DNA of 50,842 nucleotides from an archaeon (GCA_043810595.1 JBDRNX010000037.1:1-50842), one strand, 5' to 3'; shown: positions 1-26,490, numbered from the stretch's first letter. Program-made: numbers and translations. Notes: generated by a model from the sequence alone, not told the origin.

Positions 1-1
1 G

Positions 2-835: not shown

Positions 836-859
836 AGCAGACTAACTTTTAACTAAATT

Positions 860-1300: not shown

Positions 1301-1584
1301 TGTTAAAATTTCTTCCTCTGATTGCTTTGATCGTGATCGTTTTGACCCTTGCCGGAATGAGCTTTGCCGATAACATCGTCGCTCATAACATCAGTCCACA
1401 AAGCAGAAGCGACGTGAAGATGGGCAGTCATCGCCTCGAGGCAAAGCCTGCTGGCTCAGAAGTGGTTGTGTATCTTGATGGAGAAGAGATCTGGCGTGGA
1501 ACTGGGGAACACTATCTCGAAGCCCGCTCCACCGAAACTGAAACTGTGATCAAGATCGACGGCAAGAAGATCTGGCCGAAGTAG
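1297..1584 (+). CDS. small secreted protein
   Basis: TGATG stop-start overlap with the upstream gene. N-terminal hydrophobic signal peptide LKFLPLIALIVIVLTLAGMSFA. Confidence 0.5.
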   Translation: MMLKFLPLIALIVIVLTLAGMSFADNIVAHNISPQSRSDVKMGSHRLEAKPAGSEVVVYLDGEEIWRGTGEHYLEARSTETETVIKIDGKKIWPK

Positions 1585-1703
1585 TCCGGGATTGAGAGGT
1601 CTCCGTCTTGGCTTCAGGATTCAAGGTGGTTTACACCCACCACCCTCCTCACCTGCAGCTTCGGAGACCTCTCTTCTCATTCTTTGATAGAAAGGAGATG
1701 TTT

Positions 1704-1886
1704 ATGTTAAGGACTGTTGGCATGAAGGTTTCTTTTGCAGGTATTAAGGTGGAGGTTGATGACGAATGCGACCTCTGCACAGTCGATGAGTGCCCAAGTT
1801 TTAACGGCGGGTCTTGTCCGAACAAAGTGAAGGTGAAGGGCAAGAAGGGGCCGAGTTTGAAATTCAGAGAGCACTTTGAATCGTAG
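1704..1886 (+). CDS. small Cys-rich hypothetical protein
   Basis: The in-frame ATG at 1704 lies 6 nt after AAAGGAG, so the longer track ORF from 1608 probably over-extends. Contains CDLCTVDECPSFNGGSC. Confidence 0.4.
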   Translation: MLRTVGMKVSFAGIKVEVDDECDLCTVDECPSFNGGSCPNKVKVKGKKGPSLKFREHFES

Positions 1887-1908
1887 CTCATAGTGAAAGG
1901 AGGCCTCG

Positions 1909-2127
1909 ATGGTTCTGAGATCTTTGACCAATAGCATCGCATTTCTCGGTTATTGTGTTGGCTCCACGTTTGAGTTCTTTTCGATCATGGGGCTGCCTGG
2001 GAGGTACTTGGCTGTCAGGAATCAAGGCGATTTTGTGGTAGTCAAGGAGGTGGATAAAAACGGCTTACCGAAAAAAGGTACTCCAGAATTTCGAATCAAC
2101 AGGGACACAAAGGTAAGGCTTGTTTGA
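1909..2127 (+). CDS. hypothetical protein
   Basis: ATG preceded by GAAAGGAGG. Same strand and spacing as its neighbours. Confidence 0.45.
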   Translation: MVLRSLTNSIAFLGYCVGSTFEFFSIMGLPGRYLAVRNQGDFVVVKEVDKNGLPKKGTPEFRINRDTKVRLV

Positions 2128-2224
2128 AACCCTTGGGGAGGGTTGGTGATACAATGACGTTCAGAAGTGATGAGTCGAGGAGGGTTTTCAAATTATATTT
2201 CAGGGTTCCCAGGAAGGAGGTGTT

Positions 2225-2548
2225 GTGATGTTTTTTGAGGCGTTGGGTTACGTAGAGAGCGATGATTTTAAGTCGCATGTCAGGTCGTTGGCCGGAGACC
2301 TTGTCGATCAGGAGAAGAGGGCTGCTGTTTACAGGAACTTCACCTTTTTGATGGAGAATCTTCTCCTTATGGCTTACAGGGAGAAGGATATCACGAATTT
2401 TCTTCTCACTTTCGTTGAGAAGGTTGAAGAGCTCTTGAGCAGTTCCATGCGTCTTGTTGATATCTTAGGTGAAGACGAGGAGCACGACCTGATCAAATAC
2501 CTGGTGCGTGTGAGGCAAGACTTGACCGAGAAGTTACAAGATTCTTAA
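2225..2548 (+). CDS. hypothetical acidic cytoplasmic protein
   Basis: GTG-ATG start preceded by GGAAGGAGG. 107 aa with no signal peptide. Confidence 0.5.
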   Translation: MMFFEALGYVESDDFKSHVRSLAGDLVDQEKRAAVYRNFTFLMENLLLMAYREKDITNFLLTFVEKVEELLSSSMRLVDILGEDEEHDLIKYLVRVRQDLTEKLQDS

Positions 2549-2658
2549 GGTTTTGCCATCAACTCTGTAGGTGTAAAAAGTAATATCTCAAAGGGGAGGG
2601 TTGTTTTCTTGGCTCTCCCCTAATCTTTTCTAACCGTTTAGGGTAAGGGGGTGGTCAA

Positions 2659-3030
2659 ATGCAAAAAATAATTATTCCAATTATCTTGTTGTTTTTGGTT
2701 GGTGGGGCTCATGGCGAAGAGGTTTTTCCAGGTGTGAGCTACAGCTTTCATTTTTCCTGGGTCAGCATATCCAAAAATGAAGTCAGGCTTGAGCATTCGC
2801 AGCGGAGGGACTTGCTCTCTTTAGAATTTCATGATCATTCTGTATTTGCGATAGACTTCGAATGTGACGGTGTGTTGGACATAGTTTATTTCGGTAGCAA
2901 ATCTCTTTCTCGGGAGGATCCCTGTTTTGCTGAGTTGGAGGAATTTCTTAACAGGTGGAAGGTTGAAGCTTTCTACTACTCCATCGTTAGGGGATGGGAT
3001 GACTGGAAAAAGAAGGGGGGTGCGAAGTAG
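2659..3030 (+). CDS. secreted hypothetical protein
   Basis: SD GGGTAAGGGGGTGG is present. Signal peptide MQKIIIPIILLFLVGGAHG. Confidence 0.55.
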   Translation: MQKIIIPIILLFLVGGAHGEEVFPGVSYSFHFSWVSISKNEVRLEHSQRRDLLSLEFHDHSVFAIDFECDGVLDIVYFGSKSLSREDPCFAELEEFLNRWKVEAFYYSIVRGWDDWKKKGGAK

Positions 3031-3183
3031 AGTAAAATTAAGAAACTCGGGGGGGGAATAAGAAGGTCACCAGCAGTGTTCTTTCAAGTGCACTTTGCAG
3101 GAAGGTAAAGTTACATTCGTAGTCGTTCCAGGGGATCGTCATCTGCTCGGTGGCGGCCCCTTCTCTCAAATTAAAGGGGGTTT

Positions 3184-3369
3184 GTGATGAAGGAGAAGCT
3201 GCGTAATTATTTCCTAGAATGTTGCTCCTCTATTAAGCAGTTCTTTGAATGCTTCTTTGAGCTGGTTCCGGACACTTACAAGCGTTACAAATGGAAAACG
3301 CCTTTCATTTTGTTGTTCTTGTTTTTTGCTTCCATCGGCTATTTGATCTACAAAAAATTCTCTGATTGA
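3184..3369 (+). CDS. small membrane protein
   Basis: SD AAAGGGGG is present. C-terminal TM helix PFILLFLFFASIGYLIY. Confidence 0.45.
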   Translation: MMKEKLRNYFLECCSSIKQFFECFFELVPDTYKRYKWKTPFILLFLFFASIGYLIYKKFSD

Positions 3370-3575
3370 AAGGAGGTTTTATGAAATACGTGTTGGCTTC
3401 GTTGACTTTTTTAGTGTCTTACCTTTCCAAACTTGTGGATGTGCCGAAGGACTTTTTCAACAACTATCACCTCAACTTGGTATTCCATAAGGTCATGGAC
3501 GGTTTCACGGGTTTTTATCTCACAGTATTAAACCCGTGCTTTGGCCTTGGTGATTGTCCTTTCTTCACTGGTTAG
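3366..3575 (+). CDS. small hydrophobic hypothetical protein
   Basis: The TTG start overlaps the upstream stop. An internal ATG lies after AAAGGAGG, so the start is uncertain. Confidence 0.4.
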   Translation: MKGGFMKYVLASLTFLVSYLSKLVDVPKDFFNNYHLNLVFHKVMDGFTGFYLTVLNPCFGLGDCPFFTG

Positions 3576-3608
3576 GTATCTGAAAATGAAGCTGTGAAAG
3601 GAGGTCTG

Positions 3609-3767
3609 TATGGTTTCTATCTTGCTGGCATTGGTTGGTGTTGTTGTATTGATCCTCCTTGCCTACACGGCTTTGGTGTTTTTGTATGGCTATGCTAGGG
3701 GCGTTCAGAGAAGTGTTTACGAATCAAGCAAAAAATTGAACATTCTTACGAAAGGAGGGTCGCATGA
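3609..3767 (+). CDS. small single-TM protein (52 aa, below the ORF-track cutoff)
   Basis: Hand-translated as MVSILLALVGVVVLILLAYTALVFLYGYARGVQRSVYGIKQKIEHSYERRVA. AAAGGAGG lies 6 nt upstream. ATGA overlap with the next gene at 3764. Confidence 0.4.
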
Positions 3768-4036
3768 GCTCGATTAAGAAGCTTGTTTTTGCCATTTCAA
3801 TGATAGGTATTGGTTTGTTTGTTTACCACTCCCAGTTCCTTGCTGATTTAGAGAGTTACAAGCCTGCCAATCCCTGGTGGGACATGGGCTGCTGGTATTA
3901 CTATGCCATATTGTGGGGCCACAAGTACGGTTCCATCGTCTCGATGGTTTTTGGCACTGTGATGTTTATCGTGCTTGCTGTGAAGCAGTGTGTCAATTTC
4001 TTTCGAGACTTTTTCAAAAATCACCTGTATACATGA
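3764..4036 (+). CDS. membrane protein (2-3 TM)
   Basis: SD AAAGGAGGG is present. Hydrophobic segments LVFAISMIGIGLFVY and SIVSMVFGTVMFIVLAV. Confidence 0.5.
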   Translation: MSSIKKLVFAISMIGIGLFVYHSQFLADLESYKPANPWWDMGCWYYYAILWGHKYGSIVSMVFGTVMFIVLAVKQCVNFFRDFFKNHLYT

Positions 4037-4050
4037 AAGGAGAGGCGAGT

Positions 4051-4458
4051 ATGGGAAGGATAATTTTTACAGTTTTGATGATTTTTACTTTTACCTCAAT
4101 TGCATTAGCACAACCAAGTGATTTATCCCAGAAGGAGCTCCTCGATGTATTGTTGAATCACTTTGATCAGTACCGCTCACTGATTTACAAAGGGGAGTTC
4201 CTTAAGGGAGGGGAAGAATTGAGTGAGGCCTACACTATCCTCAAGAACCTTAAGAACATGAAAAGTCCATTACGCGTAGAAGGCTATCCCCGGTATTCAG
4301 ACAAGGACTTAATAGAAGGCCTCATGAAACCCCTTGAGGGTTATCGAAAGCACATATGTGAAGGGGATTTTACTCTAGCAAGCCTCGAGTTAGCCCTCTT
4401 TCATTCGCTCCTCAAAGAACTTATCAAGAGGGAAGCTGAATTGAAGAGGAAGCCTTAG
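4051..4458 (+). CDS. secreted helical protein
   Basis: In-frame ATG at 4051 after AAAGGAGAGG. Signal peptide MGRIIFTVLMIFTFTSIALA. The track ORF from 3877 overlaps the previous gene and is likely over-extended. Confidence 0.55.
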   Translation: MGRIIFTVLMIFTFTSIALAQPSDLSQKELLDVLLNHFDQYRSLIYKGEFLKGGEELSEAYTILKNLKNMKSPLRVEGYPRYSDKDLIEGLMKPLEGYRKHICEGDFTLASLELALFHSLLKELIKREAELKRKP

Positions 4459-4480
4459 TCACAATTTTAATGTCCCTTCA

Positions 4481-4524
4481 GGGTTGAGTATTTTTCACTT
4501 TTACTCAACCCTTCTTTTTTTTAT
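4481..4524 (+). terminator. intrinsic-terminator-like hairpin plus T-run
   Basis: GGGTTGAGTA (4481-4490) pairs with TACTCAACCC (4502-4511). CTTCTTTTTTTTATTTT follows. Confidence 0.6.
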
Positions 4525-4526
4525 TT

Positions 4527-4549
4527 TAATCTATTGGACATACAATATT
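4527..4549 (+). repeat. copy 1 of a 23-nt motif TAATyTATTGGnnATACAATATT
   Basis: 20 of 23 positions are identical to 16961-16983. Both copies sit immediately after a hairpin plus T-run. Confidence 0.6.
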
Positions 4550-4732
4550 AAAGGAAACCTTAAGCCTTTCCAGAACCTTTGTCCAGTGACAAAGGGGTGT
4601 TGCTCTTCCAAAATATTTAAATAATAGTGGGTATTCCTAATACACAGTAATTAAAGCTGTGTCTACTTGCAGTTAGTCTCAGTAATTCTGGAAAAAAAGA
4701 GGAAAAATTAACTATGGGGAGGTAGGATACAT

Positions 4733-4751
4733 AACCAAAAAGTATATAAAT
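4733..4751 (+). promoter_or_regulatory. archaeal BRE/TATA-like element
   Basis: AACCAAAAAGTATATAAAT is identical over 19 nt to 49323-49341. The second copy lies about 55 nt upstream of the SLT/LysM gene start. Confidence 0.45.
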
Positions 4752-5130
4752 GGGTTAATTCGCATAATTGAGTCACATTCACCAATTCAAAAATTAAAAA
4801 CCTCGGAGTTTAACTCCAAACACCCGCAAGGGTTTACCGGATCCACAAGCATACAAACAAAATTCACGCAATAATAAGTTTTGTTTGTTAGTTGCTTTGG
4901 ATAATGAGGTTGGATTCAAGAGACTGGCGATTTGCTTTGAATCGTTACTCCTGGAAAAACCTCGGAAGATGTGTGGAAAGCTTTGCTTTCGCAAATTGAG
5001 CCTTTGGCTTGTTTTCTTATATAGTGTGTTCCATTTCCTTAACTTTTCCTGAAAGTGAAAAACCCCGTTTTCATGGGTATTTCCTTGGGAATACCAAAAA
5101 ATAGAGCATAGAAAGGAGGTGGTGATTTAA

Positions 5131-5172
5131 AGGTTTTTCAGCAACTTAGGAAGGTTTTTCAGCAACTTAGGA
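5131..5172 (+). repeat. perfect tandem direct repeat, 2 x 21 bp
   Basis: AGGTTTTTCAGCAACTTAGGA occurs at 5131-5151 and again at 5152-5172. Confidence 0.85.
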
Positions 5173-5184
5173 AAGGAGTGTAAC

Positions 5185-5290
5185 ATGCGTTTGCGTTTCT
5201 TGAGAATGTTTTGTCGGCCTCCGTGATTAACTTCTCCTTCCTTGAACTATTTGGGGGTGTAGTTCAATTACATAACTTCTAGGGAAGGAG
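5185..5290 (+). promoter_or_regulatory. candidate leader peptide plus anti-SD attenuator for the 5298 gene
   Basis: A 13-codon ORF (MRLRFLRMFCRPP, 5185-5226) follows AAAGGAG. CTCCTTCC (5234-5241) is the exact complement of GGAAGGAG (5283-5290), which is the SD of the next gene. Confidence 0.25.
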
Positions 5291-5297
5291 GTTCATT

Positions 5298-5600
5298 ATG
5301 AAATCGTTGGAATGTTTAAAGCCTGGGCAGTGTCCGGAAGGCGGGATTAGTGCAGATAAGTTAAATGTTGAGTTAAAAAAAGCACCTTTAAATAAAGACT
5401 TGGTGTGGGTGTGGGCAAAGAGTACTATCATTCAAAAGGTATCAGGCAAGATTGAGGCTGGCCTCGTCAAGGTTCGTCTTGTTAAAGGTGAAAGTCCCAA
5501 CGGTCAGAAGGAGTTTCGCTTGAAAGGCACCGAGAGTGTGAGTCTGATTTTCGCCCAGTTCGCCCAGAGAACTAATAATAAGAAGAACAAAAAACGATGA
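5298..5600 (+). CDS. hypothetical basic protein
   Basis: ATG lies 7 nt after GGGAAGGAGG. 100 aa with a Lys-rich tail. Confidence 0.5.
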   Translation: MKSLECLKPGQCPEGGISADKLNVELKKAPLNKDLVWVWAKSTIIQKVSGKIEAGLVKVRLVKGESPNGQKEFRLKGTESVSLIFAQFAQRTNNKKNKKR

Positions 5601-5696
5601 TGTACATACGGGCTGCTCACTCTATTAGGGGATATACTAACCTAATTAGGTATCGGGTCTGCAGCCCTTTTTTATCTTCTCAAAAAGGAGGTTCGC

Positions 5697-6188
5697 ATGA
5701 AGATTTTCGGATTATTAGTGGTATTTCTTCTTTTGTTCCCATCTATCTCTCCTACGCAGCAGCTCGAGCGTGATATCAAGTTGGATGTTTTCTTCACAGA
5801 CCTTGTTCCAGAGTTGAAAAAGCCTGAGCATAGAGAGTTGTTGCAGAGCCTTCAGATGGATAGGGATTTTTTCAACCGTGAGATTGGTGAGAAGGTGATG
5901 GCTGAGATAAAAAACTCAAATTTCTTAGTCAAGGTCCCTGACCGCATCATGCTTTGCTTAACAGGAAGAATAGAGTCTGTAAGCAAGGGCTTGCTTTCTG
6001 ATGAGATTACCTACATTGTTTATTTTCTTACAGCAGTTCGCAACAGCGAGCCAAAGCCGAATAAGCCCCTTCACATTATTCCTATCAAGGTTAACTGGCC
6101 TGAAGGAACTCCTCTCAATGAGTTGCTCAAGCCAAAGATTAGGGAGGCAGTGGACACCATAGTAAGGGAGGTGATTCAGAAAAAATGA
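5697..6188 (+). CDS. secreted hypothetical protein
   Basis: SD AAAGGAGG is present. Signal peptide MKIFGLLVVFLLLFPSISP. Confidence 0.55.
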   Translation: MKIFGLLVVFLLLFPSISPTQQLERDIKLDVFFTDLVPELKKPEHRELLQSLQMDRDFFNREIGEKVMAEIKNSNFLVKVPDRIMLCLTGRIESVSKGLLSDEITYIVYFLTAVRNSEPKPNKPLHIIPIKVNWPEGTPLNELLKPKIREAVDTIVREVIQKK

Positions 6189-6231
6189 GTTTGGAAGGAG
6201 GTGGTTAACTTAGACAGAAAGGAGGTGTCAC

Positions 6232-6753
6232 ATGTTGAGGTACACTAAGGTGTTTGTTTTCTTGTTGTTCTCCCTTCTCATACCTGTCTTTGTTTTTTCT
6301 CAGCAGCCAACGGACAAGATGAAGGTCTGTATTAGTATTGAAGACCGCACTCCCGAGAAGAAGTTTCAGGCGAATCTCAAGGACTGGTTTACAAAAGGCC
6401 TGGTTGATACGGGCAGGTACGTAATCACCAAAGAGAGGAAAGAAGCACAGTATCAAATGACTTTAACCTTAGACAAAGCCAGTTTTTATGTGCTTCGGAA
6501 TCTTCCTTACACCGGCGTATCCCTGAACGTTGTGGTAAGTGAGATAGACCCGAAGACCGGCAAGGCTTTGCCAACTGGTCCTCCCTACGTCGTTGTCCAA
6601 CACCAGAAGCATGATATCACTTTGGAGGAAGCTGTCAAGGAAGCTGTGAAACAAGCAGCGGATGCGTTGAGGCTGTTCCATTTTAAATTCCATTTCAAAA
6701 GGGTCAACCCTACTTCTCCTGCTAACCCATTAAGCAAATCCAAGGCGGCATAA
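6232..6753 (+). CDS. secreted hypothetical protein
   Basis: SD GAAAGGAGG is present. Signal peptide FVFLLFSLLIPVFVFS. Confidence 0.55.
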   Translation: MLRYTKVFVFLLFSLLIPVFVFSQQPTDKMKVCISIEDRTPEKKFQANLKDWFTKGLVDTGRYVITKERKEAQYQMTLTLDKASFYVLRNLPYTGVSLNVVVSEIDPKTGKALPTGPPYVVVQHQKHDITLEEAVKEAVKQAADALRLFHFKFHFKRVNPTSPANPLSKSKAA

Positions 6754-6864
6754 CCTTCCTTCTGTTTGGGAGGTTCAAAACTTTGAAGAAAGGGGGTGAA
6801 TTAGTTTTACCATAGGGTAAAAGGGTTTAACTCAAAAAATCCAAAGAGACGGAGGTGTAAAGAG

Positions 6865-7263
6865 ATGAAGAAATTGTTTTTAGTTACAGTTGCGTTACTC
6901 GCTTTTGTTTCTGTGTTGGCATTTGTCCCCACGAATGCAAGAGCTGACTTCGGCCCCTGGGGTTTTGGGAATCCAACCTTTATCAACGGGAATTCGTTTA
7001 ATGGCCAGTACTACCTCGATAAGGCCAAGTCCACCAACGAGTATCAGGATGATCCCGTTAAGAGAATCGAGCGGATGATGAACAAGATGATGGACGACCT
7101 GAAGGCTATGATGGATGATCTAACCGACAGCATTGACAATTTAACCCTCAATTTTGATTACAACTTCAATTATATCATCCAATCGGGTAGCTACAACAGT
7201 GCAATCCTGCTCCCCGGTTCAGGCATGCTGGGTGGTTTCAACCCGAGCTGGGGTTTTGAGTAA
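6865..7263 (+). CDS. csgF: CsgF-like curli accessory protein (candidate)
   Basis: Signal peptide ends ...VPTNARA. The mature N-terminus WGFGNPTFINGNSFNG...NEYQDDP resembles, from memory, the E. coli CsgF plug region FQFRNPNFGGNPNNG...NSYKDP. The gene lies directly upstream of csgG. The C-terminus carries QSGSYNSA, a curlin-like half repeat. Confidence 0.5.
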   Translation: MKKLFLVTVALLAFVSVLAFVPTNARADFGPWGFGNPTFINGNSFNGQYYLDKAKSTNEYQDDPVKRIERMMNKMMDDLKAMMDDLTDSIDNLTLNFDYNFNYIIQSGSYNSAILLPGSGMLGGFNPSWGFE

Positions 7264-7287
7264 GCCCGTGATTGAGTAAGCCCGTGA
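7256..7287 (+). repeat. perfect tandem duplication, 2 x 16 bp, spanning the stop codon
   Basis: TTGAGTAAGCCCGTGA occurs at 7256-7271 and again at 7272-7287. Confidence 0.85.
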
Positions 7288-7335
7288 GAGGCACTCAGTC
7301 AGAAAAAATTTGATATTAAAGGAGGTAGGAAAGAG

Positions 7336-8259
7336 ATGAAGAAAACCTTGTTCAATCTAAGTCTGTTCGTTGTTGTCGTGCCTCTCATTCTTGGGTGTGC
7401 AGCCACATCCAAGAATTTAGACGGGAGGTACAAGTATGAGGGGGCAGTTCCAAACTGGACAGGCGCTTCTGAGAATCTGAAAAAGTTGCCTGCACCTAGC
7501 GAGAAGATTGTCGTAGCAGTTTGGAAGCTGCCTGATGAGACGGGTCAACATCGTCGTAGCGTAAACGCCACGGATTTGAGTAAGGCCGTGACGCAGGGCG
7601 GTGTCCATATGTTGATCAATGCCCTGCTGAAATCTAAGTGGTTTGAAGTAGTTGAGAGGGAGTCTTGGAGTAACCTTTATCAGGAGCTGAAGATCAGGGA
7701 AGAGATGCAGCGCCAAGGTGCAAAGGTCAACGGGGGTGTTGTCGGCCTGAAAGTGCCCAGGTTCATGATTACAGGTGCCATAACGGAATATGAGCATCAA
7801 CCATTCTCCGCTGGTGCTGGTGCAGGCTACCGTGGCTTCGGGCTAAGTGCTCGTGCGAAAATCAGCTCTGTCACAACGGATTTGCGCCTGACAGATCTTA
7901 ACACTGGTGTTGTCCTTGATGCAGTTAGCGTCTACAAACGCATCGCCTCTGAGGAAGTGGACTTCTCAATCTTCCGGTTTTTGAAGATTGACAAGTTGTT
8001 GGAAGTTGAGACTGGTTTCACTACCAACGAACCCACTCAGGCTTGCGTGAGGGAAACCATCGAGAAGAGCGTCATTAATCTCATCACAAAATGCGTTAAT
8101 AGTGGGCTGTGGTCTCCCAAGAATCCGGATGACAAGAAGTTCTTCTCTGAACTGAAGCTTGAGTTTGATGAAATGGCCGCTGCTGAGAAGAAGGCCGAGG
8201 TTCAGGAAGAGAAGGTTCCGGTGCAGAAGATCGTTTTCGGCAAGGAAGTTTCTGATTAG
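7336..8259 (+). CDS. csgG: CsgG-family curli secretion channel lipoprotein
   Basis: Lipobox LILGC. LPAPSEKIVVAVWKLPDETGQ, FTTNEPTQACVRETIEKSVINLI and GLWSPKN parallel, from memory, E. coli CsgG LPAPTGKIFVSVYNIQDETGQ, YTSNEPVMLCLMSAIETGVIFLI and GLWDLQN. Confidence 0.88.
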   Translation: MKKTLFNLSLFVVVVPLILGCAATSKNLDGRYKYEGAVPNWTGASENLKKLPAPSEKIVVAVWKLPDETGQHRRSVNATDLSKAVTQGGVHMLINALLKSKWFEVVERESWSNLYQELKIREEMQRQGAKVNGGVVGLKVPRFMITGAITEYEHQPFSAGAGAGYRGFGLSARAKISSVTTDLRLTDLNTGVVLDAVSVYKRIASEEVDFSIFRFLKIDKLLEVETGFTTNEPTQACVRETIEKSVINLITKCVNSGLWSPKNPDDKKFFSELKLEFDEMAAAEKKAEVQEEKVPVQKIVFGKEVSD

Positions 8260-8341
8260 TCAACCCTTAACCCTCTTTTGTAACTTAAGTTGTGGAACAC
8301 GCGCGCTGGCTTGGGCTTGAGTTATAGAAAGGAGACTTCTC

Positions 8342-8989
8342 ATGAAGAAGTTAGTGTTACTCAAAACGGTACTTATCCTTACCCTCGTGATGGCAACGTC
8401 GGCTTTTGCCATCGGTGGGCTGAACGTCAGTGGTATTGAGCAGGCAGGTCTCTACAACGAGGCCATCGTTAAACAGTTCAGCATTCACGGACTGAATGCG
8501 TCTAGGGTGGGTCAGTATGGGAAGTCCAACCTGGCCTACATCGATCAGATGGACAATTTCCTGGGCGCAAACCTTTCCGGTGTCCTCCAGGCTGGTCGCT
8601 ATAACGCCGCCTTCGTGGACCAGAATGCTTTCTTGGGGGTCAACCTTAACTGCATCCGGCAGTTTGGCAAGGCCAACCTCGCGAAAGTGTTCCAACTTGC
8701 CATCTTCGGACTGAATGCATCCAAGGTTGGGCAGTACGGATGGTACAATCTGGCGTTGGTGAAGCAGATTGCACTCTGCGGAATCAACCTCTCCAGCATC
8801 GATCAGGTGGGCGCGGGTAACTTCGCGAAAACGTTCCAACTTGCCATTAAGGGCCTGAACATTTCCGACGTCGAGCAAGTGGGATGCGGAAACGTTGCCC
8901 TTACGAAGCAGATAGCCCTCCACGGCGTGAACATCAGTTGCATCGGGCAGTACGGGGTTGGGAACTTCGCCCTTGTTTTCCAACACTAA
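8342..8989 (+). CDS. csgA: curlin-repeat (CsgA-like) secreted amyloid subunit, 8 repeats
   Basis: Sec signal ends ...ATSAFA. Then eight units of about 24 aa of form G-h-N-x-S-x-h-x-Q-x-G-x-x-N-x-A-x3-Q, for example QYGKSNLAYIDQ, QAGRYNAAFVDQ, QFGKANLAKVFQ, QVGAGNFAKTFQ. Confidence 0.8.
   Translation: MKKLVLLKTVLILTLVMATSAFAIGGLNVSGIEQAGLYNEAIVKQFSIHGLNASRVGQYGKSNLAYIDQMDNFLGANLSGVLQAGRYNAAFVDQNAFLGVNLNCIRQFGKANLAKVFQLAIFGLNASKVGQYGWYNLALVKQIALCGINLSSIDQVGAGNFAKTFQLAIKGLNISDVEQVGCGNVALTKQIALHGVNISCIGQYGVGNFALVFQH
8411..8986 (+). repeat. 72-bp-period coding repeat array (8 imperfect units)
   Basis: This is the DNA of the eight curlin-type repeats. It also produces the long antisense shadow ORF at 8357-8986. 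Confidence 0.75.
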
Positions 8990-9160
8990 GAGCTGCCTCT
9001 GACCATCATCTTGTTGGATCTATCGCGTTTCATTTCCAGCAAGATGGAACACATCCTCGTCGGGAAAATTCAAACCCTCATAAGGGTCTCTCGTCGGGGG
9101 ATCTCTGAGTTGTAAAATTCAAGCAATGTCCAGCGCGCGTTCCTATATTTTTCGTTAAGA

Positions 9161-9216
9161 GAGGATGGTTAGCTTATTCTTGCTTTCCATCCTCTTGCTT
9201 TCCATCCTTTTTTTTA
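9161..9216 (+). terminator. terminator-like hairpin with a duplicated 3' arm
   Basis: GAGGATGG (9161-9168) can pair with either copy of the tandem 15-mer CTTGCTTTCCATCCT (9179-9193 and 9194-9208). A T8 run follows. Confidence 0.55.
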
Positions 9217-9264
9217 TCTTCAAAACCTTGTAACTTCTAAAAAGTAACAACAAAAAGGAGGTTC

Positions 9265-10389
9265 ATGCTTATGAAGAAATCTTTTTGTTTTGTTGTAGGT
9301 TTTTTGCTCTTTCTCTTTTTTGCTTTTGCAAATGCGTTTGCTTTCACCGCCATCAATCCCAACGCTGACCGTATCTCTGTGGCTCCCGGTGAGACAAAAA
9401 CGGTGAAGGTGAATTTTACGGTGTTCTCTCAGACTCCTCAGACCGTCTCTTTCACCCCCATGCATGTTGCTGTGGACAGTAATGGCATGCTCTTGCATTC
9501 TGAGAATCTTGAGGAGGTTCTTCCTTCAAAGCCAAAAAGGTACTCGGGACTAAGCTTCGTTCAGAAGATTAACCCCGTAAAAACAGACGCACAGGGGAAG
9601 TGGGAAGAGGTTCCTGTAACAATCTCTGTACCAAAGGACGCTGTCCCAGGTGATTACCCTGTTGCTGTAATTACAAAACCTCTCAACCTCGCATCTTTAT
9701 TGATTATTGACGTAACTGGTAAGAACACTCCACCGCAAGGACAAATAAAGAATCCCAAGGTTGAGGTTGTCCAGAATAGAGTGACTGTTACAGCCGAGTA
9801 TGTAAACACATCTTCTCGGACTTCCCTCCCGGTTGTTGGTTGCTCAATAAAGAAAGATGGGCAGAGCTTGGGTGCGATGGAGCTTGAAATTTCCAACGCC
9901 ATGTATGATTTCATCTTGCCTTTGAACAGCAGGAATTTTAGTGGGAGTTTCCAGAGAAAGATGAACGTTGGCAATTACGAGTTTGAGTTCTTCTCCCTCA
10001 TCGATGATAAGATGGTAAAACACAACACCATGAAATTTAACCTAACCAGGGATGTATTCCTGCAGCAGGAAACCCTCTTTTCCATCGATGTGGTCAACCT
10101 GTCTTCCATCCACCTCTCTCTACCTTCTAGCACTTTCTTCGTTGGGGATTTAAATATTAGGAATTTGACCAAACAGAAAATCATCGTGAAATTTATGCCA
10201 ACGGACAGCTGGTTGAGGGTTGAGCATCCAGCGGTGGAGATCGAGCCTGAAAAAACAATCAAGACAAGGTTCAGTATCGAGACCCCTTCATTGTACAAGG
10301 ACACGATGAGATCCAAACTCCTTCTGATTCCTGATGCGGGGTCAGTTTTTGAGGTGAGCGTCAAAGTGAGTCCGTCCAAATTGAAGTAG
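9265..10389 (+). CDS. secreted multi-domain beta-sandwich-like protein
   Basis: SD AAAGGAGG is present. Signal peptide ends ...FANAFA. Segments such as ISVAPGETKTVKVNFTV and VPGDYPVAVI are typical of Ig/PapD-like surface domains. The family is not identified. Confidence 0.55.
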   Translation: MLMKKSFCFVVGFLLFLFFAFANAFAFTAINPNADRISVAPGETKTVKVNFTVFSQTPQTVSFTPMHVAVDSNGMLLHSENLEEVLPSKPKRYSGLSFVQKINPVKTDAQGKWEEVPVTISVPKDAVPGDYPVAVITKPLNLASLLIIDVTGKNTPPQGQIKNPKVEVVQNRVTVTAEYVNTSSRTSLPVVGCSIKKDGQSLGAMELEISNAMYDFILPLNSRNFSGSFQRKMNVGNYEFEFFSLIDDKMVKHNTMKFNLTRDVFLQQETLFSIDVVNLSSIHLSLPSSTFFVGDLNIRNLTKQKIIVKFMPTDSWLRVEHPAVEIEPEKTIKTRFSIETPSLYKDTMRSKLLLIPDAGSVFEVSVKVSPSKLK

Positions 10390-10494
10390 TTTCTTCCCGA
10401 TTGGGGGGGGCTGCACATGGTGAAAACGTTTCACCCCCAGAGCATATCACCCCTTGTTTCACCGGCAGCCCTCCTCCTTTTTCTGGAGGTTTTT

Positions 10495-11493
10495 ATGAAA
10501 AAGTATAACTTGTTTATGATGTTTTTTTTAGTTTTTTTCATACTTTTTTTCCCTGGTTCTGCAGGCTGGAAGATAGCTATCATCGCTTTCATTTTCCTGC
10601 TGCCTTACCTAGTAAAACAGCTTTTGAAGAAAGGAGGTGGAAAAAATACGTTGGTTGAAATGTTTTTTTCTTTGTTTATTTTTTTGTTTGTTGTTTCTTG
10701 TGCGACAACGCAGCAACAGGTGGTTATGCCAACACCTACAGAAGGTACAACTAAGGTGAGATTTACTAAGATCGGTGTTGACGAAAAGCAGGCTCCTCCC
10801 CTTTCTTTTTTTCTCGTTCCCGAAACTTTAAATGTTGAGGTTCCTTACGAGAAGGATACACCTCTTTTTGTCAACTTTGTGAATTGCAAGGAAGAAGTTC
10901 TTATGGTTTCCGTAAATCCGCAAACAATTCCTGAATGGATTCGTATACACCCTGCTTTTCTGGTTAGGGCTTTGGAGATCAAGAGGGTTGATTTTACTCT
11001 TATGCCTTACAAGTCAAAAGATGTTCCCCAGGAGTTCTCGATAACCTTCAAGGCCAAAGAGTCAGTTAGGAATCTTAAGTTGACTGTCAAGGTTTCTAAA
11101 TCCGAAAAAGTAGATTCTTTGGGAAAGCAGGAAGTTCAGCCAGTTCCTCCGAAAGAGGTTGAGAAAAAACCCATCGAAGTTCCTAAGGTTAAGGATGTGG
11201 TCAGGCGCGTGTTATTTTCTGTTCACGTGGCCTCTTTCAAGAATAGGGAAGAGGCTTTGGATTTTGTGGACAGCATGCCTAACCTGGAGCCGAAGACTAG
11301 TGTGATCCTTTATGACCTCGGTAGTAAGGGTTTGTGGTATCGGGTCTTTGTGGGGCTTTACAACACCCATGAGACTGCATTGGGGGTTGCGAGACATTTT
11401 AAGGAATTCTTCGGCTGGGGCTATGCGCTACCCATACAGGTTTATGAGGATTCCTTCCTTAGGGGGAAGGTTAAGAAGCGGAAGCGTGAATGA
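10495..11493 (+). CDS. membrane/lipobox protein with a C-terminal SPOR domain
   Basis: ATG at 10495 after CTGGAGG. TM helices, then FVVSC-ATTQQQ. The C-terminus FSVHVASFKNREEALDFV...GLWYRVFVGLYNTHETALGVARHF fits the SPOR peptidoglycan-binding repeat. Confidence 0.65.
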   Translation: MKKYNLFMMFFLVFFILFFPGSAGWKIAIIAFIFLLPYLVKQLLKKGGGKNTLVEMFFSLFIFLFVVSCATTQQQVVMPTPTEGTTKVRFTKIGVDEKQAPPLSFFLVPETLNVEVPYEKDTPLFVNFVNCKEEVLMVSVNPQTIPEWIRIHPAFLVRALEIKRVDFTLMPYKSKDVPQEFSITFKAKESVRNLKLTVKVSKSEKVDSLGKQEVQPVPPKEVEKKPIEVPKVKDVVRRVLFSVHVASFKNREEALDFVDSMPNLEPKTSVILYDLGSKGLWYRVFVGLYNTHETALGVARHFKEFFGWGYALPIQVYEDSFLRGKVKKRKRE

Positions 11494-11610
11494 GGAGGCT
11501 GTTATGGCTGTTGTTTTTCTCTTTACAGTAGCTGTGGGTAAGTATTTCAAATGGAATCAGAGGTATTACCCTTCATTTAAGAAGAATGATGAGGAGGCTG
11601 ATAAGAATTA

Positions 11611-11781
11611 GAGGGGCCTTCGGTCAGATAACGCGTCGCGCACCCACGCGTATCCTCGTTACTTTCACCTCCACCGGGGGCCCCTCTTTTTGCTTCAGGG
11701 GGATGCTGCAGAGCGAACCTCCTTTCTGGGGATTTACGGGAACCCTCAGTTTGAGAAGTGGCATCCCACCCCTGTTTTTTT
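11611..11781 (+). other. two consecutive large GC-rich hairpin modules, each ending in a T-run (sRNA or compound terminator)
   Basis: GAGGGGCC (11611-18) pairs with GGCCCCTC (11679-86), followed by T5, with an inner ACGCGT...ACGCGT stem. GGGGGATGC (about 11698) pairs imperfectly with GCATCCCACCCC (11761-72), followed by T7. Confidence 0.35.
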
Positions 11782-11886
11782 CTCAAAATTTTTTTTACAG
11801 TATTAGCCACTGCAAAATATACTTTGTAGGAAATATATTTCAGAATTATTATTTTGAATTTATAACTGAAAGGGAAGGTGATAGCG

Positions 11887-12009
11887 ATGGTTGTTTTCAT
11901 ATGCCTGAATTGTGCTTTAGTTCATCGTATAGGCTCACTGAGTGATGTGGTCACTTGTGGTTGTGGCATGATTCTTTCTATCGATACTGCTAACTTGGAC
12001 TATGATTAG
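11887..12009 (+). CDS. possible 40-aa zinc-ribbon-like peptide
   Basis: Hand-translated as MVVFICLNCALVHRIGSLSDVVTCGCGMILSIDTANLDYD, with CxxC...CxC. Weak SD GGGAAGGTGA. Confidence 0.3.
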   Translation: MVVFICLNCALVHRIGSLSDVVTCGCGMILSIDTANLDYD

Positions 12010-12031
12010 GCAGAGAAAGGAGGTGTAAAAG

Positions 12032-12673
12032 ATGAATAAGATGTTTTTTATTTTCCTAATTCTTTTTTCAACCCTCTCTGTTTACTCTGTTTGGGGTCAA
12101 GAAAGGTTCGAAGCGCCTATATGGAATGTAGGTGATGAATGGCAATATACCTTTAGTGAGTTTGGGAGGAGGGTTTTTGTAACGCATAAAGTTGTTAAGA
12201 TTACCGAAAACTTCTATTTTGTTGCGATGGGGGGGTTCAAAGGCTTACACGTCTATGATAAAAAGACTTTGAACATACGTTTTTATATAGATGAGGGTAA
12301 CAGAAAGCATGAGTTCAAGGATTCTTTGAGAAAACTTTTTGATTTTCCTATGTTTGTGGGAAAGAGTTGGAATGATGAATTCATTAAAAGGAATGAGTAT
12401 GCTGAGTTGAACATCACAATCTCTAACCACTTTAATGTCGAGGAGTTTGAAAAGAGAAACCAGTCTTTAGGCCTGTTCGACGTTTTGAGGGTTTATTGTA
12501 AGGAAACAGCCACAATAGATGATGATAAAGATAAAACCGTTACAAGGTGGCTGCGTTACTGGTATTCCCCTAAGGTAAAGAACCTCGTTAGGCAAGAAAT
12601 TGGAGAAAAATCCAATTTCGTATCTTCAAGTTCAAGGGAGATTGTTCTTCATCAGCATACCTTGAAAGAGTAA
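12032..12673 (+). CDS. secreted hypothetical protein
   Basis: SD AAAGGAGG is present. Signal peptide MFFIFLILFSTLSVYSVWG. Confidence 0.55.
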   Translation: MNKMFFIFLILFSTLSVYSVWGQERFEAPIWNVGDEWQYTFSEFGRRVFVTHKVVKITENFYFVAMGGFKGLHVYDKKTLNIRFYIDEGNRKHEFKDSLRKLFDFPMFVGKSWNDEFIKRNEYAELNITISNHFNVEEFEKRNQSLGLFDVLRVYCKETATIDDDKDKTVTRWLRYWYSPKVKNLVRQEIGEKSNFVSSSSREIVLHQHTLKE

Positions 12674-12744
12674 TGTGTGTTATGCTGCGCTAAAATATCT
12701 TTAAATAAGAAGCTTAAGTTTTGAAAAAAGGATAAGGAGGTGGT

Positions 12745-13044
12745 TTGATGAATAACGGAGAATTTATGATGAGATGGTTTATCAGCGTTTTTGGCATCAT
12801 AGCAAGTTTGTTTATGATGCTAGTAAATTCTGCTTTGATAGTGTATGTTGTCTGGCAAGCTGTTCATCTTAAGAGTTCAGACATCAGTCCGCTCGTGAGT
12901 TGGGTTACCTCCTCAGCGATTTCCATCCTCATAGCATATATGGTCTACAGTGCAAGTGTCAAGTTTTACACTTTTCTGAAGCGTCTTCCTCTTATTCGTC
13001 AGCATCTGAATAACGGCGGGACATTGGCTGATTTGAGTGAGTAG
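12745..13044 (+). CDS. membrane protein (3 TM)
   Basis: SD AAGGAGGTGG is present. The start is TTG 12745 or ATG 12748. Three hydrophobic helices. Confidence 0.5.
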   Translation: MMNNGEFMMRWFISVFGIIASLFMMLVNSALIVYVVWQAVHLKSSDISPLVSWVTSSAISILIAYMVYSASVKFYTFLKRLPLIRQHLNNGGTLADLSE

Positions 13045-13052
13045 CCAAGTAA

Positions 13053-13601
13053 ATGAGGGTGTTCGATAATGAGAGGCTCCTGACCCTTGAGATTCAAAGG
13101 CGAGCCATACGCCTTTCCTCCTTGAACGGTTGGGGGCCTCTCTCAGTTTCAAATCTTTGTAGAAGGGTGGTGATATCCTTGTTGGTAGACAACGCTTTTT
13201 CTAAGCATAAAACCAGCGTCAAATGTGTTGAGGACAAACTCGAGGACCTTGCAGGTTTTGTTAGGAAAGTAAGAAGGCAAACTCTAAACAACGGCGGTGT
13301 AGGTCTACCTGAATTGAAGAACCTCGAGGAGAAGGTGCATAGTATCAAAAAATCCGTCCAGTTCCTTAAGGATACAGATATTTTTAGGGTTGCGATAACA
13401 ACCAAACTTACATCCGATGAAATTCTTAAAGAGGCGAAGGATCATAACGTATTGATAGTCTCACTTTTGAAGATCGGTTTTGTTAACAGGAAAGTGCAGT
13501 TTGTTGCTGACGGGTCATTTCAGAACCTAAAGGATTTTCTTGCTCGTATGAAAGATGTTGAGCGGGCTGAGGAGTTGAACCATATTGATGCTTCGAGATA
13601 A
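13053..13601 (+). CDS. hypothetical cytoplasmic protein
   Basis: 182-aa ORF on the same strand. It shares an R-Q-x-LNNGG-x-L motif with the tail of the preceding protein. Confidence 0.45.
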   Translation: MRVFDNERLLTLEIQRRAIRLSSLNGWGPLSVSNLCRRVVISLLVDNAFSKHKTSVKCVEDKLEDLAGFVRKVRRQTLNNGGVGLPELKNLEEKVHSIKKSVQFLKDTDIFRVAITTKLTSDEILKEAKDHNVLIVSLLKIGFVNRKVQFVADGSFQNLKDFLARMKDVERAEELNHIDASR

Positions 13602-13651
13602 TACTAAGATTTTTTTAACAAAAAGTTCTATAATCAAGGAGGTAAAAACGT

Positions 13652-13813
13652 ATGTCTATGCCGTTAATAATCGCTGGTGTGGTCGGCTTTCTCCTTATCT
13701 GCCTCTCTGTTTTTCTGAGCGGAAACTATACGATGGGAATACTGTTAGGGCTTTTCGTACTGATAATAATCCTGGTATTCCGGGGGAAATCTGGGTCCAA
13801 ATTGTGGAAGTAG
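13652..13813 (+). CDS. small 2-TM membrane protein (53 aa, not in the track)
   Basis: ATG lies 8 nt after CAAGGAGG. Reads MSMPLIIAGVVGFLLICLSVFLSGNYTMGILLGLFVLIIILVFRGKSGSKLWK. It displaces the overlapping track ORF at 13585-13848. Confidence 0.45.
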   Translation: MSMPLIIAGVVGFLLICLSVFLSGNYTMGILLGLFVLIIILVFRGKSGSKLWK

Positions 13814-13862
13814 GCAACTCTCCTTATTTTGATAACATTATGCCTTAGGTGATAAGTTTAGC

Positions 13863-14249
13863 GCGCTGGAGTTTTTGAAGGAGGTGGTTTGCATGGTGAA
13901 ATTGTTAGTGCCATTTCTCATTTTTAGCTTGTCATTTGCTCCATTGGGGTTCGTCCAGGACAAAGCTAAAGGTGAGGTCAAGGTTCCAGAATCGAAAAAA
14001 AGTAGTTCGCTTGAATCTCTGAACGTAAAGCCTCAAGAGGTTGAAAAGGGGTGGGGGGATTATTCCAGCCGGCCGGAGATTTGGTCTGTGGGTTTGGATC
14101 TTTTGGAACAAATCTACATCCTCAATGTAACGCTGACCCCTTCGCCGCCACCCTACCGCCCTTCTGGCGGTATCAGTTGTGTCCAGCAAGTTGGTGGGCG
14201 GAACGTCGCTACCATCAACCAAAACTAAAACTATTGAAAACTCCAGCGC
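13863..14249. repeat. 13-nt perfect inverted-repeat pair bracketing ORF 13893-14228
   Basis: GCGCTGGAGTTTT (13863-13875) and AAAACTCCAGCGC (14237-14249). The left arm, with its 2 upstream nt (13861-13869), shares GCGCGCTGG with the arm at 8301-8309. Confidence 0.75.
13893..14228 (+). CDS. small secreted protein ending in a single curlin-type repeat
   Basis: ATG after GAAGGAGG. Signal peptide LLVPFLIFSLSFAPLGFV. The C-terminus QQVGGRNVATINQ matches Q-x-G-x-x-N-x-A-x3-Q exactly. Confidence 0.5.
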   Translation: MVKLLVPFLIFSLSFAPLGFVQDKAKGEVKVPESKKSSSLESLNVKPQEVEKGWGDYSSRPEIWSVGLDLLEQIYILNVTLTPSPPPYRPSGGISCVQQVGGRNVATINQN

Positions 14250-14305
14250 CAACTTTTTTAAATTTAATTCAAAGGCTCACAAAAGAGGAGAAAGGAGAAG
14301 GAAAA

Positions 14306-14539
14306 ATGAAGAAGATTATTTGTGCAGGTTTAATAATGGCAATGTCTATATTCGTGTTTTTAGGGGGTGTCTACCGACTGAAGCAAATGATGTTAGAGGT
14401 CAAGGCATTACCTACTGGGGAACAGGGCGTGGGGGCTATTGTGCTTATATTTATAGGAACTCTAATATGTGGAGTGTGTCTTACAACCTTTTTTTTGGGT
14501 CTGTGTAAATTAAGGGGGGATAATCAATTAATTAGGTAA
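14306..14539 (+). CDS. small 2-TM membrane protein
   Basis: In-frame ATG after GAAAGGAGAAGG. Reads MKKIICAGLIMAMSIFVFLGG... The longer track ORF from 14051 overlaps the previous gene. Confidence 0.5.
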   Translation: MKKIICAGLIMAMSIFVFLGGVYRLKQMMLEVKALPTGEQGVGAIVLIFIGTLICGVCLTTFFLGLCKLRGDNQLIR

Positions 14540-14610
14540 AAAGGCCCACACTCTTTAACTTGATTCTGAAATAACAACTAAACTTTTATTGCAGAAAGGA
14601 GAATAAAAAA

Positions 14611-15150: not shown

Positions 15151-15166
15151 AGAAAGGGGGTGTTGG

Positions 15167-15538: not shown

Positions 15539-15570
15539 AGTTGCATAATCCATCTAGGGAGGTTGTCGTG

Positions 15571-17480: not shown

Positions 17481-17614
17481 ACTTTATTATCAAAAATTTG
17501 CCGTTTTAAATTTTTTGTTTAATTATTATACTACAACATATATTTTACACCAGTAGTCATCTCGTCATGGGTGCTGTTATTCTTTATAAATTCTAAAAAC
17601 AAATGGTTTGACCT

Positions 17615-26475: not shown

Positions 26476-26490
26476 AAGAAAGAGGTTGAA

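Follow-up and report, generated by a model that had tools for sequence, protein, structure and literature searches.

Three adjacent genes encoding a CsgF-like protein, a CsgG-like lipoprotein channel, and a curlin-repeat protein were found on the plus strand of an archaeal contig of 50,842 nucleotides (GCA_043810595.1, JBDRNX010000037.1:1-50842; this whole stretch is hereafter called the window). The window is genuinely part of a Woesearchaeal (DPANN) chromosome, and its host is a tiny, probably symbiotic archaeon. Judged by the sequences of its parts, the module is a curli-type system and not an equivalog of the enterobacterial one, and purifying selection acts on its genes in several archaeal genomes that have diverged from each other. 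The explanation we favor, with some reserve, is a Woesearchaeal module of bacterial origin that is under selection and makes a cell-attached amyloid for adhesion. Together, the three genes span positions 6865-8989; the end at 9216 given in a preliminary description of the locus takes in a hairpin and T-run downstream.

The window was compared with several related loci. Three of these (L001, L091, and L092) are located on JAZDEN010000017.1, referred to as contig 17, of the metagenome-assembled genome (MAG) GCA_043808805.1, and L008 is a contig of the same MAG that carries PolX and PIN-KH genes. L006 is a separately assembled Logan contig from a diverged organism, with a CsgG 65% and a PolX 83% identical to those of the window. 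L009 (CAYSAF010000001.1) is a 102-kb Woesearchaeota contig without csg genes, and L010 is a further Woesearchaeota contig. The csg loci in a bacterial context were L002 (GCA_040960625.1), L007, and two JGI contigs (P0006 and P0010).

Components of the module

The preliminary description had read the three genes as the core of a curli machinery, and their adjacency and shared orientation were confirmed (6865-7263, 7336-8259, and 8342-8989). In hmmscan searches against Pfam, each product scored above the curated gathering threshold (GA) of its family, which is 25.8 bits for CsgF (PF10614), 20.8 bits for CsgG (PF03783), and 20.7 bits for Curlin_rpt (PF07012).

The CsgG-like protein matched its profile with 157.4 bits from position 3 to position 209 of 210, and it was aligned over its full length to E. 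coli CsgG (PDB entries 6LQH, 3X2R, and 4UV3) with an E-value of 2e-41; the alignment begins at the lipobox cysteine, covers both barrel hairpins, and reaches the C-terminal helix. The collinearity with E. coli CsgG claimed earlier was borne out, as the blocks quoted for it (LPAPSEKIVVAVWKLPDETGQ, GFTTNEPTQACV, and GLWSPKN) are present and fall on the corresponding E. coli blocks in the PDB alignment. The lipobox LILG-C pairs with LLSG-C of E. coli, and its residues G20 and C21 were invariant in all ten members of the CsgG clade described below. In sequence, the transmembrane (TM) hairpin segments TM1 and TM2, for which the numbering of E. coli CsgG served as a guide, align to that protein without gaps. 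Among the CsgG copies in archaeal context, the two hairpins were 75% and 83% identical, compared with 74% for the rest of the protein; the barrel-forming segments are at least as conserved as the remainder. The NCBIfam model NF011731 gave 152.9 bits against a cut-off of 505, which marks the protein as a distant member of the family and not as an equivalog of enterobacterial CsgG. The NCBIfam match to HfaB was weak, with 54.5 bits compared with the 152.9 for CsgG proper.

The secreted 132-amino acid (aa) CsgF-like protein was likewise found as described, with a signal peptide that is directly followed by ADFGPWGFGNPTFINGNSFNGQYYLDKAKSTNEYQDDP. Its Pfam match was a marginal pass of 29.6 bits, in which residues 14-88 were aligned to profile positions 6-73 of 132. 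The N-terminus lines up with the N-terminal segment of E. coli CsgF that inserts into the barrel; the E. coli CsgF, CsgE, and CsgC sequences used in this study served as guides only. The N-terminal motif W-x3-NP-x-F-x-G[GN]-x3-GQ-x-LL-[DN]-K-A-x-[SA]-TNE was conserved across the clade (the window, L001, L006, L002, and L007). The C-terminal globular domain of CsgF was not matched, with profile positions 74-132 lacking a counterpart in the protein, and the C-terminal half consists of a helix-rich segment and an IQSGS-N-S tail that are shared only within this clade. A phmmer search of the protein against the CsgF chain in the PDB was not significant (E = 0.57).

The curlin-repeat protein carries a Sec signal peptide and eight exact Q-x-G-x-x-N-x-A-x3-Q motifs at residues 34, 58, 83, 107, 131, 155, 179, and 203, with unit lengths of 24, 25, 24, 24, 24, 24, 24, and 23 aa. 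Such a pattern of eight repeats is far beyond chance. Both the curlin core in units of about 24 residues and a repeat register different from that of E. coli CsgA had been proposed before, and both were upheld. Curlin_rpt was matched with 55.6 bits in three stretches, and the curlin structure 8C50, solved by cryo-electron microscopy (cryo-EM), was matched with an E-value of 2.9e-15 in four overlapping repeat alignments. After the predicted cleavage behind SAFA, the mature protein starts directly with the first repeat, and no Gly-rich leader was seen that would resemble N22, the N-terminal segment that targets E. coli curlin for secretion. A single-sequence AlphaFold2 (AF2) model was all-beta with a pLDDT of 71.3, where one of the five models scored above 50. 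A Foldseek search of this model against the PDB gave no significant match (best E = 0.09), and the weak matches were beta-helix proteins. In L006, the curlin gene (6980-8293) encodes 437 aa with many tandem units, twice the length of that in the window, and hence the repeat number varies widely within the lineage.

Archaeal context of the csg genes

To the right of about 17 kb, gene content and colinearity both mark the window as archaeal, and this part encodes a PIN-KH ATPase, GCD14, FtsZ, and SecDF. The glutamyl-tRNA synthetase (GluRS) has domains of the archaeal/eukaryotic type; its relatives at 80-90% were contigs labelled "archaeon" or without a name, and the named ones at about 60% were all from Woesearchaeota or Nanoarchaeota. 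Similarly, the nearest relatives of PolX, sought among 185,579 species genomes, were all Woesearchaeota, Nanoarchaeia, or unclassified archaeon MAGs, and the PolX/PIN-KH contig L008 was 85-86% identical to the window. The region from 17.6 to 40.5 kb was colinear with L009, with identities of 86% for PolX, 87% for the PIN-KH ATPase, and 94% for FtsZ, and an integrase-bearing insert was the sole part of it missing from L009. Additionally, two tRNA genes were matched by Rfam and missed by ARAGORN: one at 37657-37780 (minus strand) with a 43-nucleotide insert in the anticodon loop, and one at 32392-32477 (plus strand) with a 16-nucleotide insert at a non-canonical position in the D-loop region. 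Both inserts are likely archaeal introns.

The link between the csg genes and this archaeal sequence was found again on separately assembled contigs. In L006, csgF, csgG, and the curlin-repeat gene are followed directly by YdjM (minus strand), DUF763, a radical SAM (rSAM) gene, a second rSAM gene (minus strand), and PolX, an order identical to that of the window at 16998-23426. The same YdjM-to-PolX block runs on, in the window as well as in the 102-kb Woesearchaeota contig, into clearly archaeal genes. On the left side, L006 and contig 17 have in common a trio of genes upstream of the csg island, which encode proteins of 80 aa and 152/154 aa and a DUF87 ATPase. The ATPase is 73% identical between the two contigs, and L009 starts within a homologous ATPase gene. 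The region is thus not a bacterial fragment, a possibility against which the preliminary description had cautioned.

That possibility was weighed as a rival explanation, under which the left 17 kb would be bacterial DNA mis-joined or mis-binned to a Woesearchaeal contig, and hence no archaeal curli module would exist. It draws on the bacterial-flavored domains of the left part (SPOR, GFxxxE pilin, PEGA, and lipoboxes), on the bacterial nature of the closest CsgG outgroup, and on gene signals. Specifically, the Shine-Dalgarno (SD) sequence AAGGAGGT was found 5-10 nucleotides upstream of nearly every gene in the window from 1 to 16883, and the G+C content at third codon positions (GC3) was 0.42-0.69 in these genes (0.56-0.69 in the csg genes), compared with 0.24-0.50 in the core genes to the right. 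Against this stand the diverged L006, which joins csg genes to the same core block, the DUF87 left flank found in both L006 and contig 17, and the csg-free L009, which carries the same SD-rich type of island at this site. The junction was found to hold neither a shared repeat nor a conserved gene by which an assembler might be misled, and the tetranucleotide correlation was 0.86 between the left and right parts of the window and 0.74 between the left part and the bacterial L002, a comparison that is not decisive on a chimera. The independent contigs are decisive; mis-assembly is very unlikely, and it is the least credible of the rival explanations considered in this study.

The contrast in SD sites between the left and right parts was also considered as the signature of a chimera and rejected, as L009 has the same contrast (positions 1-7100 compared with 7076 onward). 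Since the island genes of L009 are led by SD sites and its DUF763 gene is not, the contrast is a property of the variable island of this lineage and not an assembly artefact. In the core genes of the window (YdjM, DUF763, rSAM2, PolX, PIN-KH, MscS, GCD14, and GluRS), no SD site was seen, and TTTATA or TTTAAA boxes lie about 25-35 nucleotides upstream, which suggests short-leader or leaderless transcripts.

Origin and evolutionary constraint

The ten closest CsgG sequences, that of the window among them, formed one clade in a neighbor-joining tree, nested among other CsgG sequences. Within this clade, a subclade of five members with 82% bootstrap support was composed of the window, L086, L090, L001, and one short contig; of these, the window and L001 are the two with a directly demonstrated archaeal context. 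Apart from L006, the other four clade members (60-67% identity) were found on contigs with FkpA, multicopper oxidase, and multihaem cytochromes, and L002 additionally encodes a sigma-54 activator and a HisKA kinase, a bacterial context. The CsgG family is overwhelmingly bacterial, and in a survey from 2026, the few CsgG-like proteins noted from archaea and viruses were nested within bacterial ones (PMC13397529). Given the bacterial nearest relatives, this family distribution, and the foreign GC3, the simplest reading is that the module would have reached Woesearchaeota from bacteria by horizontal transfer. In the search for the donor lineage, for which a CsgG phylogeny had been suggested, cluster look-ups of L002 proteins returned no organism names.

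Further relatives were few. An exact-sequence look-up of the CsgG of the window returned no record, and a metagenome scan with the CsgG alignment returned one already-known contig of 1.2 kb and distant homologues at 26-28%. An origin from a virus or provirus was considered and rejected: no relatives of CsgG, curlin, or the DUF87 ATPase were found in IMG/VR, and the only PHROG matches were an excisionase-like HTH protein and the pilin.

A separate observation was made on the bacterial relatives (L002, 10967-13681; L007, 7682-10755; and the contigs P0006 and P0010). In these loci, csgF, csgG, and the accessory gene p374 (Table 1) were always followed by a gene for a large multihaem cytochrome similar to MtrC/MtrF, which hints at a tie between the bacterial csg variant and extracellular redox proteins.

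The open reading frames (ORFs) of the module were intact in at least four diverged copies of the archaeal clade (the window, L001, L090, and L006). Ratios of nonsynonymous to synonymous substitution rates (dN/dS), estimated with the Nei-Gojobori method against archaeal-clade relatives, were 0.08-0.15 for csgG, 0.16-0.18 for the curlin gene, and 0.21 for csgF (against L001), compared with 0.08 for PolX between the same genomes. These ratios are rough, as dS (1 or more) is near or past saturation, but they are still clearly well below 1, and they point to purifying selection on the csg genes in several diverged archaeal genomes. Such constraint bears on the alternative that the module is passenger DNA, namely a bacterial transfer without use in the archaeon that is heading for loss. 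The absence of the module from the homologous site of L009, a composition that is not fully ameliorated, and a host without a known outer membrane would fit such a fate. The intact ORFs in at least four diverged copies, the low dN/dS at a dS of 1 or more (with csgG as low as PolX), and the conservation of the lipobox and the TM hairpins speak against it, and we hold it to be highly improbable.

Accessory genes and the surface-protein island

The features of the window around the module are listed in Table 1. In the window, the module is ordered as p100, p163, p173, CsgF, CsgG, the eight-repeat curlin, p374, and a SPOR-domain protein. The occurrence of the accessory genes varied among the related loci. 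For example, p163 and p173 were located upstream of csgF in the window, L001, and the bacterial L002, only p173 was present in L006, and neither was detected in L007. The SPOR-domain protein was found in the window and L001, and p100 in the window, L001, and L006; no homologue of p163, p374, or the SPOR protein was detectable in L006. Wherever present (the window, L001, L002, and L007), p374 was immediately downstream of csgG or of the curlin gene, and L090 has at this position a candidate ORF of 315 aa. The curlin gene follows csgG in the archaeal versions, and in the bacterial ones it is either upstream of csgF or fused into a larger protein.

Table 1. Positions and supporting evidence of the curli-type module and its surroundings in the window.
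Feature	Position	Length (aa)	Strand	Evidence
Variable surface-protein island; tightly packed genes for small secreted, lipobox, or membrane proteins	1..16883		+	SD sites; GC3; genes common to JAZDEN010000017.1
p100, small conserved protein	5298..5600		+	tblastn 40% to L001 just upstream of cluster; 42% to L006 just downstream of curlin gene
p163, secreted accessory protein	5697..6188		+	47% to L001, 44% to bacterial-context L002; same position
p173, secreted accessory protein	6232..6753		+	34-36% to L001, L002, and L006; same position
csgF-like gene; signal peptide and N-terminal CsgG-binding motif	6865..7263	132	+	Pfam CsgF 29.6 bits; motif; dN/dS 0.21
csgG-like lipoprotein channel gene	7336..8259	307	+	Pfam CsgG 157.4 bits; E 2e-41 to E. 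coli CsgG; lipobox; dN/dS 0.08-0.15
Curlin-repeat fiber subunit (CsgA/B-like); signal peptide and eight units of about 24 aa	8342..8989	215	+	Curlin_rpt 55.6 bits; E 2.9e-15 to 8C50; dN/dS 0.16-0.18
Hairpin AGAGGATGG...CCATCCTCT with T8 run after curlin gene	9158..9216		+	Read directly from sequence
p374, secreted Ig-like or WxLIP-like protein	9265..10389		+	53% to L001; 29% to bacterial L002 and L007; same position
Membrane/lipobox protein with C-terminal SPOR domain (binding of peptidoglycan glycan strands)	10417..11493		+	Pfam SPOR 29.1 bits (GA 21); 39% to L001, same position
Bacterial-type type IV pilin/pseudopilin MRKKGFTVIELLIIIAIVGIIAAIAIP; last island gene	16284..16883		+	Pfam N_methyl 28.2 bits (GA 21.2); NCBIfam IV_pilin_GFxxxE above cut-off
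Archaeal core block bounding the island on the right: YdjM(-), DUF763, HTH/LAGLIDADG insert, rSAM, rSAM(-), PolX	16998..23426		.	Same order in L006, L009, and L010

Most of the accessory proteins had no clear family. No family match was obtained for p100, and none in Pfam, NCBIfam, or the PDB for p163, whose family had seven representatives among 1.84 billion proteins; a word-indexed homologue search with p163 returned p163 alone. In hhalign, p173 weakly resembled the strand-helix unit that comes first in CsgG (probability 61%), and the AF2 model of p173, with a pLDDT of 45, was unusable. The Pfam matches of p374 were all sub-threshold, and they included WxLIP_PGBD (E = 0.0015), fn3_5, and NPCBM_assoc. 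For the SPOR gene, the ATG at 10495, which is preceded by an SD site, is the likelier start. The two upstream proteins p163 and p173 were also considered as analogues of CsgE or CsgC and rejected, with no matches in the PDB, Pfam, or NCBIfam and hhalign probabilities of at most 4% against the E. coli sequences.

The hairpin and T8 run downstream of the curlin gene may mark a transcript end. It was not listed by a consensus terminator scan, the total of which was not above chance, and a scan of the module for bacterial promoters and terminators likewise revealed nothing above chance.

In this lineage, the island is flanked by the DUF87 ATPase gene and the YdjM-DUF763 core block. The first position of the window already falls within the island, so that neither the ATPase gene nor the left edge of the island is part of the window. 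Besides the csg module, the island in the window encodes a PEGA protein, two HTH_17 proteins, the small protein p95, the SPOR protein, and the bacterial-type pilin. The equivalent region of L009 contains different SD-led genes for secreted proteins and no csg genes. The small secreted protein p95 (1297-1584, plus strand; 183-461 in L001) belongs to no known family, and its copies in the window and in the JAZDEN MAG share 87% identity, which makes it far more conserved than its island neighbors (72% for CsgG and 53% for p374). The N-terminus of the pilin, KKGFTVIELLIIIAIVGIIAAIAIP with Glu5, is that of a textbook prepilin of the bacterial type, here encoded on an archaeal chromosome. Near its gene, neither a prepilin peptidase nor an assembly ATPase was found, and a weaker N_methyl protein was observed in the related island of L001/L092. 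The island of contig 17 carries more cargo in the style of bacterial envelopes: in L091 (6941-11152 of JAZDEN010000017.1), two OmpA-family proteins of the peptidoglycan-binding type are encoded, one of them fused to a domain similar to phosphate-binding proteins, together with VWA, TelA, an ABC transporter, and PP2C.

Two further insertions were observed to the right of the island. At 18670-19660 (plus strand), two overlapping ORFs that resemble HTH_23 and LAGLIDADG_3 are located between DUF763 and the rSAM gene, and in L006, L009, and L010, these two genes abut or overlap without the ORF pair, which is possibly an insertion of the homing-endonuclease type. Additionally, a tyrosine-recombinase gene (24728-25996) and low-GC ORFs spanning about 7 kb come after a tRNA-Gly(CCC) gene (24561-24635). 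As these ORFs are missing from the colinear L009, the region 24561-33400 is probably an integrated element; no att site, in the form of a direct repeat of the tRNA end, was found for the element at 24.7-33 kb.

Proposed function and the membrane question

Surface amyloid formation and adhesion are the most likely function predicted for the module. All components would be exported by Sec, as signal peptides are present on every one of them and the window encodes SecDF. CsgG would then be lipidated at the invariant lipobox cysteine via an archaeal pathway of the AliA type and assemble into the usual oligomeric beta-barrel, and CsgF would dock into it through the conserved N-terminal motif. The curlin, without an E. 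coli-like N22 leader, would polymerize at CsgG-CsgF into cell-attached amyloid fibers, which, along with the co-encoded peptidoglycan-binding and pilin proteins, would mediate attachment to partner cells (plausibly bacteria) or to biofilm. Lipobox lipoproteins and the lipidation enzyme AliA are common in DPANN (PMC12462473), and Woesearchaeota, which encode murein-binding or murein-degrading proteins, may live with bacterial partners (PMC8204110, PMC9723730). The SPOR protein in the window, the OmpA-family and VWA proteins in L001/L091, and the bacterial-type pilin similarly suggest that the target of adhesion may be bacteria.

Several observations weigh against this explanation. The module is accessory and not a lineage-wide trait, as csg genes are missing at the same site of L009, the closest long contig. 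Neither a CsgB-like nucleator nor CsgE or CsgC was recognized; the preliminary description had already noted the lack of these and of CsgD, and searches of the neighboring ORFs with Pfam and NCBIfam profiles found no match to any of the four. The positions that correspond to Y51, N55, and F56 in the constriction of E. coli CsgG (a numbering that served as a guide) were variable, D or E, and L, respectively, across the whole clade, and since the bacterial members share this constriction, it is not an archaeal adaptation. L006 joined the five-member CsgG subclade weakly (45% for the monophyly of all six). The match to 8C50 points toward a beta-solenoid, a fold that was not demonstrated by the model of the curlin. 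The membrane itself poses a further difficulty: curli are described as machines of diderm bacteria, in which CsgG is a beta-barrel of the outer membrane, and we know of no outer membrane in archaea of this group. In a cell with a single membrane, the transport role of CsgG is unneeded, as Sec export already puts the curlin outside, and a barrel in the cytoplasmic membrane is expected to be leaky or harmful. There are three ways out for a constrained barrel, and one of them would have to follow from a set of channel, plug, and subunit that is complete and that selection has preserved in the genomes of several DPANN archaea: a membrane-independent role of the assembled CsgG-CsgF oligomer in templating or anchoring the amyloid, an unrecognized outer layer and thus an unseen envelope compartment, or insertion of the pore into the membrane of another cell, namely the outer membrane of a partner.

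The latter two have in common that the CsgG-CsgF barrel is kept for a membrane other than the cytoplasmic one of its own cell, be it an outer membrane or that of a bacterial partner, in the latter case as a contact-dependent pore or anchor within an attachment apparatus between the two domains, and jointly they are given a small but real chance. Insertion into a partner is unlikely taken by itself. It would have a surface-anchored CsgG-CsgF insert its barrel into a bacterial partner's outer membrane to form a conduit of about 1 nm or a docking site, where the curlin, the SPOR/OmpA-like proteins, and the pilin would hold the two cells together. This would explain the constraint on barrel segments for which no membrane is known in the archaeon, and it agrees with the peptidoglycan-binding SPOR protein of the island and the OmpA-family proteins of contig 17. 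Published genomic hints of Woesearchaeota attacking or attaching to bacteria (PMC8204110, PMC9723730) are consistent with it, and the CsgGF of phages, which have no CsgA, shows use of the pore outside classic curli secretion (PMC9004378). However, insertion into a membrane in trans is not known for CsgG. The curlin gene, retained and constrained, fits the production of fibers more simply, and the bacterial relatives share the constriction and the accessory genes, so that no archaeon-specific adaptation is apparent.

A second, outer membrane-like envelope layer in these Woesearchaeota, which would make the module a conventional type VIII secretion system, is slightly more doubtful still. The complete logic of channel, plug, and subunit is retained and constrained, many lipobox proteins are encoded in the island, and a few archaea (Ignicoccus, the SM1 euryarchaeon, and ARMAN) are described as having two membranes. 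Yet no Bam-, Lol-, or Lpt-like genes were found in the approximately 70 kb of island and flanks inspected, the module is accessory whereas an envelope architecture would be lineage-wide, and the literature search turned up no ultrastructural data for Woesearchaeota.

Significance and comparison with known systems

Curli have been reported from at least four bacterial phyla in published surveys (PMC3521004). A full-text literature search that combined curli or CsgG with archaea or DPANN returned no paper describing an archaeal curli module, and the NCBI pipeline names two proteins of L001 "curli assembly protein CsgF [archaeon]" and "CsgG/HfaB family protein [archaeon]". An archaeal curli module is therefore not categorically new, but it has not yet been recognized or explained. 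It offers a molecular lead on how Woesearchaeota attach to their partners and on whether some of these partners are bacterial. Additionally, the small, diverged CsgG/CsgF pair with its D/E-L constriction adds to the pool of nanopore scaffolds.

The module resembles enterobacterial curli (csgBAC-csgDEFG; 6LQH, 6L7A, and 6SI7) in a CsgG that is a lipoprotein and can be aligned from the lipobox through both barrel hairpins to the C-terminal helix, in the N-terminal barrel-binding motif of CsgF, in a subunit with the Q-x-G-x-x-N-x-A-x3-Q core, and in the adjacency and shared orientation of the three genes. It differs in its archaeal host, in the lack of CsgE, CsgC, CsgB, and CsgD, in the gene order F-G-A, and in the additional conserved proteins p163, p173, and p374. 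The E. coli curlin has five units of about 22 aa, compared with eight units of 24 aa and no N22 leader in the archaeal subunit. Furthermore, the C-terminal half of CsgF is unrelated, the constriction is D/E-L instead of N-F, and the scores are far below the NCBIfam equivalog cut-offs.

Among bacteria, the csg variant of L002, L007, and the two JGI contigs is close to the archaeal module, with a CsgG of the same clade (60-67%), the same type of CsgF, p374 after csgG, and the D/E-L constriction. In contrast to the archaeal 215-aa gene after csgG, the curlin of this variant is a 169-aa protein upstream of csgF in L002 and part of a 729-aa protein in L007, and the variant has a GC content of about 51% in a context of a sigma-54 activator, HisKA, and FkpA. 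Among solved structures, the non-enterobacterial curlin 8C50 was the best match of the archaeal subunit (E = 2.9e-15); this bacterial protein is longer and has more repeats than the archaeal one, for which the sequence match suggests a similar fold.

Two systems outside classic curli are also comparable. In pelagimyophages and the methylophage Melnitz, a CsgG/CsgF pair similarly occurs outside the canonical operon and the usual cellular setting (PMC9004378); these phages have neither csgA nor csgB, whereas the archaeal locus has an adjacent, constrained curlin gene. The holdfast anchor HfaB of Caulobacter belongs to the same Pfam family as the archaeal CsgG, which matches HfaB weakly, and the partners of the archaeal protein are CsgF and a curlin in place of HfaA and HfaD.

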